From Escherichia coli (GTDB taxonomy: Bacteria; Pseudomonadota; Gammaproteobacteria; Enterobacterales; Enterobacteriaceae): a stretch of DNA of 64,000 nucleotides. The notes beneath the pieces are model-generated. The model did no database searches and was not told the origin of the DNA. It saw only the letters and a program-made list of their open reading frames with translations. Below, piece by piece: positions 3,371 to 53,064 of this stretch; position 1 is the stretch's first letter, and each line of letters begins with the position of its first letter. The stretch lies in the NCBI RefSeq assembly GCF_017348835.2, contig NZ_CP071375.1, one strand, 5' to 3'. A program made the position numbers and the translations under genes.

Positions 3371-3512
<142 letters not shown>

Positions 3513-3971: not shown

Positions 3972-4885
3972 GGCTGAGTCCGCTTGTTGGCGCTGTCTTT
4001 CACCAGCTCGGCAATCCCGGCAATCGACCCCATCAGGCTGCTGGCCTCTAATGGCATCATCACTACTTTGCTGTTACTGGACGAACCGATCTGCTGTAAC
4101 GCTTCGGTGTATTTCTGCGCTACGAAGTAGTTCACCGCCTGAATATCACCTGAGGCGATGGCTTCAGACACCATTTTGGTGGCGCGGGCTTCTGCTTCAG
4201 CGGAACGTTCACGCGCTTCAGCCTGTAAAAACGCCGACTGACGTTCGCCTTCCGCTTTCAGGATTTGCGACTGTTTTTCACCTTCGGCTTTGAGGATTTC
4301 TGCCTGACGGATCCCTTCCGCTTCAAGAATGTAAGCGCGTTTGGTACGTTCCGCTTTCATCTGCGCGTTCATTGAAGAGATAAGCTCTGCCGGTGGGCGC
4401 ACGTCGCGAATTTCAATACGGGTGACTTTAATCCCCCACGGGTTAGTGGCTTCATCGACAATACGCAGCAGGCGTGAGTTGATGCTGTCGCGCTGAGAGA
4501 GCATTTCGTCAAGTTCCATTGAACCCAGCACGGTACGGATGTTAGTCATGGTCAGGTTGATGATCGCCAGCTCCAGATTGCTGACTTCATAAGCCGCGCG
4601 CGGCGCATCAATCACCTGAATAAAACAGACTGCGTCGATGGTAACGTTGGCGTTATCTTTCGAGATAACTTCCTGGGAAGGGATATCGAGCACTTGCTCC
4701 ATCATATTGATCTTGCGACCAATGCGATCCATAAACGGCACCACCAGACTGAGCCCCGGCTGTAACGTTTTGGTATAGCGACCAAAACGTTCTACCGTCC
4801 ATTGATAGCCCTGCGGCACGATTTTGACGCCCGCGCCGACAATGACCAGCGCGACAAAAATGAGAATCGGGATAAAGATAAGCAT
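3968..4885 (-). CDS. qmcA: SPFH/stomatin-family protein QmcA
   Basis: 305 aa. N-terminal TM, SPFH domain and a coiled-coil repeat ([29 protein letters not shown]). K-12 synteny. Confidence 0.93.
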
Positions 4886-5030
4886 CGGAAAAACCTCCTG
4901 TTGTACCGTCCATAATCAGCAAAATTGCTGCTTGATTAAACAAATTATACCTGATTACTGAAAGAGAGTTCCCCCTTATTCCTGCGAAGGATAAACTGTT
5001 TTTAGTAAAAATCAGAAAAAGGGAACAGCG

Positions 5031-25415: not shown

Positions 25416-25521
25416 GTACTCATGCCGGATGCGGCATGAGTACCATATCCTTCCTGAAAATCGCGCAAATTCTATATATTGCAGAGATCATGTAGGCCTG
25501 ATAAGCGAAGCGCATCAGGCA
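25416..25521. repeat. REP elements
   Basis: gtactcatgccggatgcggcatgagtac hairpin and tgtaggcctgataagcgaagcgcatcaggca. Confidence 0.8.
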
Positions 25522-25528
25522 ATGTTAC

Positions 25529-25555
25529 AAAAAAAGCCACGGTATAAACCGTGGC
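25529..25555 (-). terminator. rho-independent terminator of allE
   Basis: gccacggtataaaccgtggc hairpin, followed in the minus sense by a T7 run. Confidence 0.75.
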
Positions 25556-25597
25556 AAAATCCAACATAGCTAAAAATAATCAGGCGAGTGGTATGAC

Positions 25598-26393: not shown

Positions 26394-27629
26394 TTATTTC
26401 TGCCAGGCAAGTTGATAAAGCATGAGTGCCAACGTTTTGACCCCTTCGGCAAGGTCGGTAATATTGGTGCGTTCCGCCGGGTTATGGCTGATCCCGTTGA
26501 TGCTGGGAATGAAAATCATGCAGGTCGGCACGCGAGGCGCGAAAAATTGCGCGTCGTGCCCGGCACCACTGTGCATCACCCGGTAATTCAGTTTTTCACT
26601 TTCACACAATTCTGTCAGGGTGGCGACCAGGTCCTTATTCATCGGCACGGGTTCTTCGTCCATCCATAAATCGATATCAATACCAATGTCCATTTCATCG
26701 CAAATCGCCCGCATGTCGTTTTCTAACTGTTGGGTGAAATCACGCAGCACGGCGGCGTCGGTATGACGACAATCAATGGTGAACGTGGTTTTACCCGGCA
26801 CCACATTCACCGTATTCGGGCGCGGCTCTACTTTGCCAAAGGTCAGAACCAGCGGATCGTCCATCTTTTTCGCTTTTTCGATCGACTGATGGCAAATGCG
26901 ACTGAAAGCGTAAACCGTATCACGACGATAACCCATCGGCGTGGTGCCTGCATGGTTTGATTCGCCGTTCAGCGTCACCGTATAGCGACGCTGCCCGACA
27001 ATTGCATTCACCACGCCAATTGATTGCCCATTACTTTCCAGCACACAGCCCTGTTCGATATGCAGTTCGACAAAGGCTTTAATATCCTGACGCGGAGTTA
27101 GTGGGGCGTTCGGCAGAGTAAATCCGCAAGCCTTCATCGCATCGACAAAACTATTTCCTTTGGCATCACAGATATTCCGCACGTCGTCAGGATTCGCCAG
27201 CCCAAAGATATTTTTACTGCCCCAGAAAACATACGGGAAGCGGCTGCCTTCTTCTTCCGCCATCGCCACCACTTCAACCGTACGCAGCGGTGCGCCGTAT
27301 TGCGTTTTCAGCCAGTCAATTGCCAGCCACGCCGCCAGCGCGCCGAATTGCCCGTCGAGGTTACCGCCGTTAACCACGGTATCGATATGCGAACCGCTCA
27401 GAACTACTTCCTGTGGATATTCGGTGCCACTCAGGCGACCGTATAAATTCCCCACTTCATCGAAACGTGTTTCCAGCCCACTTGCGGCCATTCTTTTTTT
27501 AAATTGCTGCTGGGTTTCCAACCATTCCGGCGAATAAAGTAAACGGGTCATCCCACCCGTTGGGTCAGCGCCAAATGAGGAAAGCCAGGGCAGCGCTTCT
27601 TCTATGGCTTGACGAAAATGTGTAATCAT
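26394..27629 (-). CDS. allC: allantoate amidohydrolase
   Basis: Start at MITHFRQAIEE gives 411 aa. M20 peptidase family. Confidence 0.93.
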   Translation of the reverse strand: MITHFRQAIEEALPWLSSFGADPTGGMTRLLYSPEWLETQQQFKKRMAASGLETRFDEVGNLYGRLSGTEYPQEVVLSGSHIDTVVNGGNLDGQFGALAAWLAIDWLKTQYGAPLRTVEVVAMAEEEGSRFPYVFWGSKNIFGLANPDDVRNICDAKGNSFVDAMKACGFTLPNAPLTPRQDIKAFVELHIEQGCVLESNGQSIGVVNAIVGQRRYTVTLNGESNHAGTTPMGYRRDTVYAFSRICHQSIEKAKKMDDPLVLTFGKVEPRPNTVNVVPGKTTFTIDCRHTDAAVLRDFTQQLENDMRAICDEMDIGIDIDLWMDEEPVPMNKDLVATLTELCESEKLNYRVMHSGAGHDAQFFAPRVPTCMIFIPSINGISHNPAERTNITDLAEGVKTLALMLYQLAWQK

Positions 27630-47010: not shown

Positions 47011-47087
47011 GCGCCCTTAGCTCAGTTGGATAGAGCAACGACCTTCTAAGTCGTGGGCCGCAGGTTCGAATCCTGCAGGGCGCGCCA
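47011..47087 (+). tRNA. argU: tRNA-Arg (anticodon UCU), argU
   Basis: 77 nt: gcgcccttagctcagttggatagagcaacgaccttctaagtcgtgggccgcaggttcgaatcctgcagggcgcgcca. Cloverleaf with a 7-bp acceptor stem, TCT anticodon in the CTTCTAA loop, GGTTCGAATCC T-arm and encoded CCA. Confidence 0.97.
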
Positions 47088-50703: not shown

Positions 50704-51066
50704 TTAACGACCTGCTGCGCGGAGTTTTCCGTCAGGTTCACCGGCAAGAGTCAGTAATTGTCCCTGGTCTTCCTGCAGAATAGTCAGGCGACCACCGCGA
50801 TTGACATACATCGGCGTTTCGGTGGTGTCTTCTTCGGAAATTTTCCCGCGGTTAGTCGGGCGAATATATGAGAGTTTGTGTTTGATTTTCACACGGTTCT
50901 CATCAAATGGTTCGATTTCCAGGTTGAGTGAGACCTTACCTTTGGTTTTCGTGTTCATCACACCGGAAGCGACTTCACTGAGAACTGCGCCGATTTTGGT
51001 TTCAAATACGCCGCCGTCCAGCTCCCCGATAAATGCCTGCACATCAGTACTGCGTTCGCTAGCCAT
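50704..51066 (-). CDS. YfdP-like prophage protein (120 aa)
   Basis: Start placed at ATG 51066 (MASERSTDVQAFIGELDGG) behind a GAGGAG SD. The upstream extension in the ORF track lies in the GC-rich noncoding block. Confidence 0.6.
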   Translation of the reverse strand: MASERSTDVQAFIGELDGGVFETKIGAVLSEVASGVMNTKTKGKVSLNLEIEPFDENRVKIKHKLSYIRPTNRGKISEEDTTETPMYVNRGGRLTILQEDQGQLLTLAGEPDGKLRAAGR

Positions 51067-51099
51067 TTTGCTGCTCCTCATCATATCGACCCTGCAAGG

Positions 51100-51500
51100 C
51101 CGATTAGTTTCTCCACAAAACAGAGAAGAACACCTGTGGTGGCCGCCGCCCGGATGGATTGGGTTATGAGCCCGTCGTCCGGTGATGCTCTTCTCTGTTT
51201 TGTAAAAAGGACGGTACCAGCCGGAAGCAAGGGTACAAGCTGGTACCGCCAGGACTACACACAGCATAAAGTTGTGGTGCCGGGTGCCCTCCCGGTGCCT
51301 GGCGAAGGTTGCACACCAGGCGGGTGGGTATCCACAGAAGGTCGACTGTCAGCCTCAACCTTAACCCGCGTGCGCTGAGCCGCATTCACCACAACGCTAA
51401 GGATTCTCTCTGGTTGAAAATACTTAGCTGTTATGTGCCTGCTTTTAGCCACATCAGGCGAGGTGGACCTGGTTATTCCCCAACAACAAGGATTCGGTTA
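51100..51500 (+). ncRNA. candidate large structured RNA / structured leader (unclassified)
   Basis: About 60% GC in sampled 60-nt blocks and no credible ORF. Perfect helices: 51115-51129/51189-51203 (15 bp), 51212-51221/51239-51248 (10 bp), 51271-51279/51387-51395 (9 bp), 51305-51311/51356-51362 (7 bp), 51396-51401/51423-51428 (6 bp). Helix 51276-51284/51291-51299 has two G-U pairs valid only in the + sense. Strand and boundaries are tentative. Confidence 0.3.
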
Positions 51501-51536
51501 ATCTGGATATCCCCAACAACAATAAGAGTATTCAAT

Positions 51537-52052
51537 GTGATCGCTGAATTAACGGCAGCAATGACGGCTATTCGTGAAACAGCCCAGATTGCAAAACTAA
51601 TGAACGAGGCAAAAACTCAAGCTGAAGTAAATGCGGCTATTGGTGAGCTGAACTCAAAGCTTGCGTCTATTCAGCGCGAATGCGTGTCTCTCGTTGAACT
51701 GGTGGGCTCTTATCAAGAAATAAATGCTTCTCTCAAAGCTAAAATTGCAGAATTCGAAAACTTTGAGGCTCAGACGGAAGGCTATATCCTTAACCAACTT
51801 GAGTCGGGTACTTTTGTATACTCGAAGGAGGTAATCGTGAACGGTGGCAGCATAACCATGCATCTTTGCCCAAAATGTTTTGGACAAAAGATAGTATCGA
51901 TACTTCAACCATTCCCGGTTAGCGAAGATGAGCTTTTTCATAAAAGCAGGTGCCTCCACTGTGAAAATAAGTTTCTGATGAATAAAAATCCGGATTACGT
52001 ATCGCCTCCATCCATTGAGGAGTTGTCCAGAAAACTTAACGGCAATCTGTAG
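51537..52052 (+). CDS. hypothetical coiled-coil + zinc-ribbon protein (171 aa), convergent moron between early-left operon and cI
   Basis: GTG 51537 lies 8 nt after an AAGAG SD. The N-terminal ~75 aa are heptad-like (AQIAKLMNEAKTQAEVNAAIGELNSKLASIQRE...LKAKIAEFENFE). The C-terminus carries CPKC-x24-CLHC. It has its own terminator at 52092-52115. The opposite-strand ORF has antisense-like composition. Confidence 0.6.
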   Translation: MIAELTAAMTAIRETAQIAKLMNEAKTQAEVNAAIGELNSKLASIQRECVSLVELVGSYQEINASLKAKIAEFENFEAQTEGYILNQLESGTFVYSKEVIVNGGSITMHLCPKCFGQKIVSILQPFPVSEDELFHKSRCLHCENKFLMNKNPDYVSPPSIEELSRKLNGNL

Positions 52053-52115: not shown

Positions 52116-52280
52116 TTGCTAACGAATCATCCTGGACTTCATATGCCCCAGGCGGCTACTTCGTGGGCGTCCTGCCTGTTCGTTTTTGACATTTACTGAC
52201 TGCTTACGACACATGCACCGTGTTGCAACCAGATTTTGTTGTAATCCTGTAGTTGGTCTGGAACAAAAGATAAAATTAAA

Positions 52281-52317
52281 TTGCGAGATATGCAAGCGAT
52301 ATTTGCGAGGTATGCAA
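52281..52317. promoter_or_regulatory. OL: two 15-bp repressor operators (pL region)
   Basis: TTGCGAGATATGCAA (52281-52295) and TTGCGAGGTATGCAA (52303-52317), with starts 22 bp apart. The same word family occurs in the cI-cro intergenic region. Confidence 0.6.
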
Positions 52318-52330
52318 ATTTATAGGTAGT

Positions 52331-52371: not shown

Positions 52372-53064
52372 TTAATTATGTCTCTTAAGGGTTTGCGACT
52401 GACTGATTAAGACCTTTCCAAAGACCATGAATCGGTGTTCGTTTTCGCTAGTAATTCCCCATTCACGGTAAATCTGGTTATCAGAAATCACCAGCAGTTT
52501 GTCAGGAATCATTTGAAGTCTTTTAACGTATATTTTGTCATCAAAACCAAAGACATATATACCATCACCATCAAACTGATTGATGCTGACATCAACGAAG
52601 ATGAGATCTCCTGGCTCAATGGTTGGACACATACTGTCCCCACGAACGTTGATAACTTTGATGTGATTGGCTGGTCGTCCGCCGAACATTGATACAGCAT
52701 TATCAGTTCTGTATTCGATGGCATGAATCACATCAATGACATCACCGCCCTGGATAAGGCCATTTCCCGCACTGGCACTGATATCCAGCATTTCAATACG
52801 GAACACATCCTTCACCTGCGCAACATCCTCATTATTACTGTTTTTATATACAGTATTACTTTTGTGGGCAGAGGTAAAGAGATCAGCAATATCAACACCT
52901 AAGCTCTTGGCAATATTACTCAGTGTTTGTTCGGTAAATTGTTTTTGCTTACCCGTTTCTAAGCGCGAGATGTTCGCCGCATCTACTCCTATTGCTTCAG
53001 CGAGATCGGCGATTTTCATGTTCTTCGCTTGGCGAAGTTGTCTGACTCGGTTTCCTATGTTCAT
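52372..53064 (-). CDS. CI-like prophage repressor (HTH_XRE + S24 LexA-like peptidase)
   Basis: 230 aa. N-terminal XRE HTH (IGNRVRQLRQAKNMKIADLAEAIGVDAANISRLETGK). C-terminal S24 motifs GDSM (nucleophile Ser) and YVKRL (Lys). Confidence 0.88.
   Translation of the reverse strand: MNIGNRVRQLRQAKNMKIADLAEAIGVDAANISRLETGKQKQFTEQTLSNIAKSLGVDIADLFTSAHKSNTVYKNSNNEDVAQVKDVFRIEMLDISASAGNGLIQGGDVIDVIHAIEYRTDNAVSMFGGRPANHIKVINVRGDSMCPTIEPGDLIFVDVSINQFDGDGIYVFGFDDKIYVKRLQMIPDKLLVISDNQIYREWGITSENEHRFMVFGKVLISQSQTLKRHN

Follow-up and report, generated by a model that had tools for sequence, protein, structure and literature searches.

Conserved non-coding RNA modules ahead of yfdP in a lambdoid prophage of Escherichia coli, with likeness to STnc100/PasD and KilS

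We have analyzed a stretch of 64,000 nucleotides (nt) of Escherichia coli DNA (contig NZ_CP071375.1; hereafter the window) that contains a lambdoid prophage adjoining the tRNA-Arg(UCU) gene at 47011-47084. The subject of this analysis is the interval of 470 bp (51,067 to 51,536) that is flanked by a yfdP-like gene on the minus strand and a gene of 171 amino acids (aa) on the plus strand. A preliminary description, made from the sequence letters, had proposed a candidate novel structured RNA at this place, with the plus strand weakly favoured. The structured RNA is upheld, and it includes a pseudoknot; the strand is the opposite one, the interval is a chain of separately conserved mosaic modules and not one RNA, and its parts are related to the prophage small RNAs (sRNAs) STnc100/PasD and KilS. 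The interval is a real, strongly conserved non-coding RNA region, and its functional strand is the minus strand, which has the same sense as yfdP and the leftward early operon and is opposite to the 171-aa gene. The features of the interval, in the direction of the minus strand, and the surrounding genes are as follows.

51428-51466, minus strand: 5' motif CCAC-CUC-GCCUG-AU-GUGG-CUAAAAG-CAGGC-ACAUAACAG, with S1 CCAC/GUGG, S2 GCCUG/CAGGC and an A-rich loop 3
51396-51428, minus strand: hairpin P0 (GCUAAG ... CUUAGC), seen directly in the sequence, which joins the 5' motif to the core
51269-51396, minus strand: core domain of STnc100/PasD type, 128 nt, five helices and a pseudoknot, from the covariance model and covariation
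51395-87/51279-71, minus strand: core helix P1, 9 bp in the window
51386-84, minus strand: core joining segment J1/2, AAU
51383-80/51372-68, minus strand: core helix P2, with loop CUCAGCG and a bulged A
51367-64/51325-22, minus strand: core helix P3
51362-56/51311-05, minus strand: core pseudoknot AAGGUUG/CAACCUU
51354-26, minus strand: core P4, variable
51321-14/51304-297, minus strand: core helix P5
51295-80, minus strand: core hairpin P6, CCGGG-AGGGCA-CCCGG
51252-51270, minus strand: single-stranded, seed-like stretch UUUAUGCUGUGUGUAGUCC, 19 nt, 3' of the second strand of P1 (P1b)
51204-51250, minus strand: intrinsic terminator, with a 12-bp stem GGCGGUACCAGC/GCUGGUACCGUC, a 16-nt loop and U5
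51115-51203, minus strand: module A, a three-way junction directly after the terminator U-run
51203-51184/51134-51115, minus strand: 20-bp stem that closes module A, with two G.U pairs
51064-51104, minus strand: a small hairpin at 51104-51085, followed by the Shine-Dalgarno sequence GAGGAG and the start codon AUG of yfdP, from the sequence
50704-51066, minus strand: yfdP-like gene (RefSeq yfdP; PHROG phrog_204), first gene of the leftward early operon yfdP-yfdQ-yfdR-...-yfdT
51537-52052, plus strand: 171-aa gene of unknown function (PHROG 1244), with a GTG start
52122-52183, minus strand: conserved two-hairpin element with a closing stem, about 60 nt, outside the interval and on the same presumed transcript, from RNAalifold
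52372-53064, minus strand: cI-like repressor gene
53162, plus strand: cro-like gene

The interval is GC-rich, as had been described, with a GC content of 0.54-0.59 over 51000-51400 and 0.41-0.46 in the flanks. Both strands fold better than dinucleotide-shuffled controls, the plus strand with z = -2.2 (2 of 100 shuffles fold as well) and the minus strand with z = -4.47 (none of 100 as good). Among the helices of the family alignment there are 111 G.U cells, which pair only on the minus strand of the window, versus 29 A.C cells, which pair only on the plus strand; the RNA strand is therefore taken to be the minus strand. The preliminary description had read its G-U pairs in the opposite sense, as weakly favouring the strand of the 171-aa gene. 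Besides the folding energy, a plus-strand RNA could draw on module A, which taken alone has a slightly lower minimum free energy on the plus strand (-43.7 versus -40.8 kcal/mol). Such an RNA is nevertheless very improbable in view of the wobble counts and minus-strand folding energy, of an invariant U.G pair in module A, of the terminator U-run and all homologies (to STnc100, KilS and DicF), which lie on the minus strand, and of the orientation relative to the early-left genes, which is kept in all phages whatever lies upstream. A decayed protein-coding gene is suggested by the RefSeq (PGAP) call of a frameshifted 'hypothetical protein' pseudogene at 51081-51392 (minus strand) and by the PHROG families phrog_33599 (minus) and phrog_3651 (plus). 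We find this hard to credit: the same DNA carries one of the two 'families' on each of its strands, no Pfam domain was found in the four open reading frames (ORFs) that overlap the interval, the lengths of the core (length mod 3 = 35/33/26) and of module A (89-116 nt) vary out of frame, the window has a 1-nt insertion in the P6 loop relative to its closest and to most relatives, stop codons occur in all six frames in 30 of 94 core representatives, and the substitutions within helices are compensatory. No reading frame conserved across the homologues was detected by the Pfam, PHROG and length tests. The 'hypothetical protein' calls in RefSeq and phage annotations, and the PHROG families over the RNA region, are probably spurious, and on these tests the earlier view of a non-coding structured RNA rather than a gene was confirmed.

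Matches to the 470-bp query are found in 3007 of 5426 complete E. coli genomes, with at least 80% of the query covered in 1625 of these, and the 470 bp are also present in phages SfV, SfIV, SfII and PhiR29_1. Remoter relatives occur in ST64B, 118970_sal3, phiES15 and Klebsiella phages. The likeness is mosaic: query positions 1-185 are common to mEp460, cdtI and Stx2c phages, positions 187-400 to phiES15, and positions 362-464 to Klebsiella phages. In SfV, ST64B, 118970_sal3, phiES15 (upstream of kil), Qin and Rac the element constantly has the repressor gene on one side and the first early-left gene on the other. The window interval, between the cI-like gene and yfdP, has this same location, which is that of KilS and DicF. 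All helices listed in the preliminary description were recovered, and every one corresponds to a conserved element. The pair 51115-29/51189-203 forms the 20-bp stem that closes module A, 51212-21/51239-48 the terminator stem, 51271-79/51387-95 core P1, 51305-11/51356-62 the pseudoknot and 51396-401/51423-28 hairpin P0, while 51276-84/51291-99 falls in the P6 region and 51453-58/51468-73 at the 5' motif.

Relatives of the core were collected with two patterns. A 16-nt pattern from its conserved part retrieved about 100 true relatives from viral contigs, and a 20-nt pattern from hairpin P6 retrieved copies in more than 100 Enterobacterales species, together with about a dozen chance matches in other phyla. 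The collection holds 204 core copies, of which 155 are unique, and these form 94 clusters at 90% identity. When subtypes are compared, the consensus order is P1a, AAU, P2, P3a, PKa, a variable P4, P3b, G-R, P5a, PKb in the P5 loop, P5b, (C)A, P6 and P1b (PK, pseudoknot). Consensus P2 has 4-5 bp, the loop C-U-N-W-G-C-G and one bulged nucleotide; consensus P6 is CCGGG-AGGCA-CCCGG. Covariation was assessed on an alignment of 61 sequences (A1) that includes both the window and the STnc100 subtypes, with the variable middle excised. Over the whole named structure 83.2% of cells are paired, versus 66.5% in shuffles (0 of 500 as high) and 36-45% in a slid-partner control, and the covariation score is 0.467 against 0.167 for the control; covariation among homologues thus bears out the proposed structure. 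By helix, the paired cells amount to 90.7% in P1, 100% in P2, 87% in P3, 91% in P5 and 99% in P6, which is nearly invariant.

The pseudoknot pairs 7 nt after P3a with the P5 loop. Its two strands change together between types, being AAGGCUG/CAGCCUU in phiES15, CAGUUAA/UUAACUG in the Qin type and UGGUUAU/AUAACCA in type 4. A column-based count on a MAFFT alignment gave merely 42% paired, with the loops misaligned, and for this reason an alignment-free test was adopted in which the loops of 85 sequences are permuted. The longest complementary run averages 6.18, compared with 4.57 +/- 0.12 after permutation (0 of 1000 as high), over 71 distinct sequence pairs; the comparison of cognate with non-cognate pairs is blurred by a shared CAG/CUG core. 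The competing pairings noticed earlier, which had been taken to suggest alternative folds or pseudoknots, represent this pseudoknot against a local hairpin, and the permutation test supports the pseudoknot. A covariance model of the core (R1) matches the window at 51396-51269 (minus strand) with 74.8 bits and E 2e-17, which is not independent evidence since the window copy is in the seed. A second R1 match in the window at 26936-27018 (minus strand; 17.5 bits, E 0.015) comprises a P1-like helix and GGUGAAUGC; as P6 is missing, it is probably a chance match. A tRNA-like core was also considered, but no tRNA is called by ARAGORN in the core, nor in the T-loop-like hairpins of Klebsiella phage Kp4866-6 and phiNP, and an analogy of P1, P2, P3, P5 and P6 to a cloverleaf is speculation.

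At Rfam gathering thresholds no match was found in the interval. A relaxed cmscan, however, aligned the full STnc100 model (RF02076, positions 1-206) to the minus strand at 51425-51201 with 36.5 bits and E = 3e-6 (gathering score 47); the lead to STnc100 thus came from the relaxed scan and not from curated thresholds, and the earlier statement that the region resembles no Rfam family does not hold. The corresponding position in SfV, ST64B, sal3, phiES15, a Klebsiella phage and Qin-like prophages likewise gives a sub-threshold STnc100 match, of 33-41 bits. The window shares with STnc100/EcOnc27/PasD the closing helix P1, J1/2 GUGAAU, a P2 hairpin with the loop CUNWGCG and a bulge, P5, and P6 CACCGGGAGGCACCCGGCAC, as alignment A1 bears out. 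An intrinsic terminator at the end and residence in Enterobacterales prophages are common to both as well. The decisive point is P2, where 4 of 5 pairs show double changes: the window type is GCGG/C(A)CGC, the Rfam STnc100 type CCCC/G(A)GGG, and further variants are CCAG/C(A)UGG, UCUC/G(C)AGA and CCCU/A(C)GGG. Because P2 covaries between the types, the core is, as judged from sequence comparison, homologous to the 5' domain of STnc100/PasD.

The window copy nevertheless differs from STnc100 in several ways. Its P3/P4 is larger, its 3' tail is of KilS type, and the pseudoknot is absent from the Rfam consensus structure. It lies without its own promoter inside the early-left operon, whereas STnc100 belongs to the late region, downstream of Q or stx. 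A sigma70-like promoter was found in 11 of 65 STnc100-type copies, placing the start of transcription at P1 (shuffles, 6.8%), and in none of 28 early-operon-type copies did the sequence just upstream reach 9/12 matches. A promoter scan of the minus strand over 51400-51540 found none. The window copy therefore has the terminator of an independent STnc100-type gene but no detected promoter at P1.

Downstream of the core the likeness is to KilS, an annotated sRNA of E. coli K-12 Rac (b4833) located just upstream of kilR, which was predicted from data on Hfq obtained by RIL-seq (ligation and sequencing of interacting RNAs) and confirmed by Northern blot (PMC8175672). The 21 nt UGCUGUGUGUAGUCCUGGCGG, which reach into the terminator stem, are identical in KilS (21/21), and the differences between the two terminator stems are compensatory. 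In the relaxed cmscan alignment the same terminator is the terminal hairpin of STnc100. KilS and DicF (from Qin) are early-left operon sRNAs of lambdoid prophages. Like the window element, they have the repressor on one side and a kil-type or early gene on the other, and their terminators are of the GGCGG...CCGCC type. A KilS-like relative scores 39.1 bits with the DicF model. The single-stranded words before the terminator, UGCUGUGUGUAGUC, recur in the 3' part of the Rfam RprA consensus; the phiES15 homologue reaches 41 bits on RprA (RF00034), and an RprA-type terminator is present in some relatives (locus L042, phiES15). There is no similarity to the RprA 5' part, which holds the characterised seed (stem-loop near nt 31; PMC5861431), and the window itself has no RprA match at E <= 10. 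These likenesses indicate that the 3' part, comprising the stretch and the terminator, is homologous to KilS, with a resemblance to DicF and to the 3' part of RprA as well.

The 5' motif at 51466-51428 is a probable H-type pseudoknot. It is found upstream of the core in many phages, in 31 sequence variants, and S2 takes the form GCCUG/CAGGC at 40 loci and CCCGG/CCGGG at 14 loci including K-12 Rac, with a single G.U variant, GCUUG/CAGGC; since S2 shows two classes only, the covariation support is limited. A sigma70 or sigma54 promoter at the 5' motif was rejected by inspection, as the -10-like hexamer is poor and not conserved. At the place of P0, other subtypes carry a different hairpin, GAAAGCGCAC.../...GUGCGCUUC. 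Just 5' of P1 at three loci, L006 (Klebsiella phage Kp4866-6), L008 (phiNP) and L007 (118970_sal3), there are hairpins whose sequences are perfect likenesses of a tRNA T-arm (GGUUCGAUUCC, GUCCGUUCGAUUCGGAC) and a boxA-like UGCUCUCUUCG; ARAGORN finds no tRNA there.

Module A has a highly conserved interior, CACCGGRCGACGGGCUCAUWACCCAAUCCAYCCGG, and a variable third arm, and occurs in lengths of 89, 90, 93, 112, 113 and 116 nt. RNAalifold on 11 variants predicted 33 pairs, 7 of them with compensatory changes, together with the invariant U.G pair. No Rfam match was found for module A. It is present at 94-95% identity in mEp460, cdtI and Stx2c phages, which are without the core, and it also stands upstream of genes other than yfdP.

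E. coli K-12 itself contains two unannotated core copies. One lies in Qin between dicF and dicB (NC_000913.3 1649453-1649583, plus strand; L252 1654-1784; R1 71.7 bits) and the other in Rac between kilS and kilR (about 1418260-1418391, minus strand; L253 2392-2261; R1 68.6 bits). The order in Qin and Rac is sRNA, terminator, core, toxic gene, while that in the window is core, sRNA-like stretch, terminator, module A, yfdP. In the Rac unit upstream of KilS both P1 strands are kept and the core between them is lost, and Qin has a different insert between P1-like strands, from which it follows that the modules behave as cassettes. P1 of the Qin/Rac type extends to about 20 bp, and in Qin-type copies the start codon follows P1 by 17-33 nt. 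Toxic or lysis functions are frequent among the genes 3' of the core (dicB, kilR, kil, holin); overall, the ORFs neighbouring core copies are diverse and no conserved partner gene or dominant family was found among them. Tandem core arrays (2-4 copies at a spacing of 130-570 nt) occur in some Pantoea, Erwinia and other genomes (L227 3749-4735, L241 about 4800-4900, L205, L199, L181, L171, L209), and in L227 and L241 the core lies 10-14 nt upstream of tRNA-Met/Thr genes.

A further conserved element precedes the interval on the same presumed transcript, at 52183-52122. It consists of a closing stem GCGAAC/GAUUCGC, a small hairpin GGC-AGGAC-GCC and a hairpin CCUGG...CCAGG, and 8 of the 16 pairs predicted by RNAalifold show compensatory changes. 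In most relatives such an element starts about 15-20 nt downstream of a sigma70-type pL promoter, and these promoters belong to different immunity types; the element is also present in L002, L003, L006, L007, L008, L119, L191, L216 and L232. No Rfam match and no sequence similarity to putL were seen. By its position it may be regarded as an analogue of HK022 putL in phages without a recognisable N gene; the lack of such a gene was likewise noted for phage LLS (PMC12315714). If it were an antiterminator RNA, the passage of polymerase through the leader terminator would be explained. The core, like the HK022 put RNAs, is an RNA element in the early-operon leader of a lambdoid phage without a recognisable N gene, but it was rejected as a put RNA: it has no sequence or structure similarity to the retrieved putL, R1 finds nothing in the HK022 immunity region, and the separate element at 52183-52122 is the better positional analogue. 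Two inverted-repeat, operator-like sites, TTGCATATCTCGCAA and TTTGCATACCTCGCAAA, lie at 52281-52318 (minus strand), downstream of the cI terminator (52352-52331), and overlap a promoter-like sequence TTGCAT-17-TATCTT. This is the putative oL/pL; its distance to the put-like element, about 85 nt, is greater than that in other phages.

The reading that we favour, with a probability of roughly 0.6, is that the interval is a non-coding, highly structured leader of the prophage leftward early operon, which would yield a KilS/DicF-like sRNA by termination and processing ahead of yfdP. Its product would most likely be an Hfq-type sRNA derived from the pL transcript. When the repressor is lifted, this transcript would enter the leader, and a fraction of transcripts would end at the terminator, with the 3' end at 51204-51208 and a 5' end made by processing. 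The result would be either a composite sRNA of about 190-225 nt with the core in it or, as with KilS and DicF, a shorter 3' fragment. It would act on host mRNAs via Hfq through the KilS-type single-stranded stretch, and this is the best-supported activity because the relatives PasD, EcOnc27/STnc100, KilS and DicF are Hfq-dependent (PMC8550237, PMC12711010, PMC5331693, PMC8175672). Polymerases that read through would express yfdP-yfdT, and RNase III would be likely to cut the 20-bp stem of module A and so part the sRNA from the yfdP mRNA. Several observations weigh against this reading. In Qin and Rac the core follows the sRNA terminator and directly precedes dicB or kilR, and is thus not obligatorily part of the sRNA. 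The STnc100 score of the window stays below the Rfam gathering score, and the DicF model gives only 15.9 bits (E 1.3; the gathering score of 48 is not reached), the DicF seed not being that of the window. An opposite-strand gene lies between the putative pL and the leader, so that the leftward transcript would need to cross it antisense. Finally, a five-helix pseudoknotted domain with invariant loops exceeds what a plain base-pairing sRNA needs and points to a further function.

Such a function might be that of a cis-acting sensor, either a riboswitch-like aptamer or a site for a protein or RNA polymerase, which would control termination at 51204-51250 and through it the entry into yfdP-yfdT; the expression of dicB and kilR in Qin and Rac would then be under the control of the core, and the 'sRNA' would be a terminated leader. 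We hold this possibility to be tentative and on balance doubtful. The architecture is riboswitch-like, with a closing P1, a multi-helix junction, a pseudoknot and the invariant unpaired AAU, CUNWGCG and AGGCA, and an aptamer-like fold does stand next to a possible expression platform, with a terminator or ribosome-binding site 3' of the core. STnc100-type copies with a promoter start at P1 have a terminator 5-45 nt after P1 and then an ORF, and both the short distance to the start codon in Qin-type copies and the frequency of toxic or lysis genes downstream would fit. Yet no conserved alternative pairing (antiterminator or anti-Shine-Dalgarno) was seen by eye in several subtypes, no systematic search having been made, and the Shine-Dalgarno sequence is not sequestered by P1; the diverse neighbouring genes suggest no ligand or partner protein, and copies that form tandem arrays or immediately precede tRNA genes fit better with a released stable RNA. 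The bolder proposal that the core represents a novel class of RNA domain, which binds a ligand, a protein or polymerase and gates toxic and early prophage genes (kilR, dicB, kil, holins, the yfdP operon), with STnc100/PasD as its terminated leaders, we regard as unlikely. Less probable again is that the modules are mainly processing or stability elements of a polycistronic phage transcript, without a role in trans, the long stems being RNase III sites and the structured 5' and 3' ends stabilisers. RNase III-site stems are known from the T7 early region and the lambda N leader; the position of the module A stem immediately after the terminator, the length that P1 reaches in the Qin/Rac type and the swapping of modules as cassettes among phages agree with this, as does the cleavage of the DicF precursor by RNase III (bioRxiv 10.1101/2023.04.14.536235). 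P1 of the window is just 9 bp, however, the retention of invariant loops and a pseudoknot across more than 100 species would be left unexplained, and Hfq binding as well as RIL-seq partners are on record for the relatives (PMC8550237, PMC8175672).

We could find no earlier description of the five-helix, pseudoknotted architecture of the core, of its early-left operon copies including those in the K-12 spacers, or of module A. The core thereby gains a testable secondary structure that includes a pseudoknot. The K-12 copies lie directly upstream of the FtsZ inhibitor genes dicB and kilR, whose control is not fully understood. STnc100/PasD, sRNAs of the late region in pathogens, and KilS/DicF, of the early-left operon, become linked, in that both appear to combine the same RNA cassettes in rearranged form. 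Should the core indeed bind a ligand or protein, the best-studied bacterium would be found to possess a new class of regulatory RNA.

Two minor observations concern other parts of the window. The sequence TCCCCAACAACAA is present twice on the plus strand as direct repeats (51522-51503 and 51489-51469 in minus-strand order), immediately before the GTG codon with which the 171-aa gene starts. The repeats are kept along with a homologous gene in Klebsiella phage Kp4884-1 and may act as promoter or regulatory region for the 171-aa gene. Elsewhere in the window, Rfam matches at the gathering score occur at 25525-25591, 25457-25499, 12319-12407 and 3386-3463; they belong to STnc480, ES036, AgrB and naRNA4 and are unrelated to the interval.

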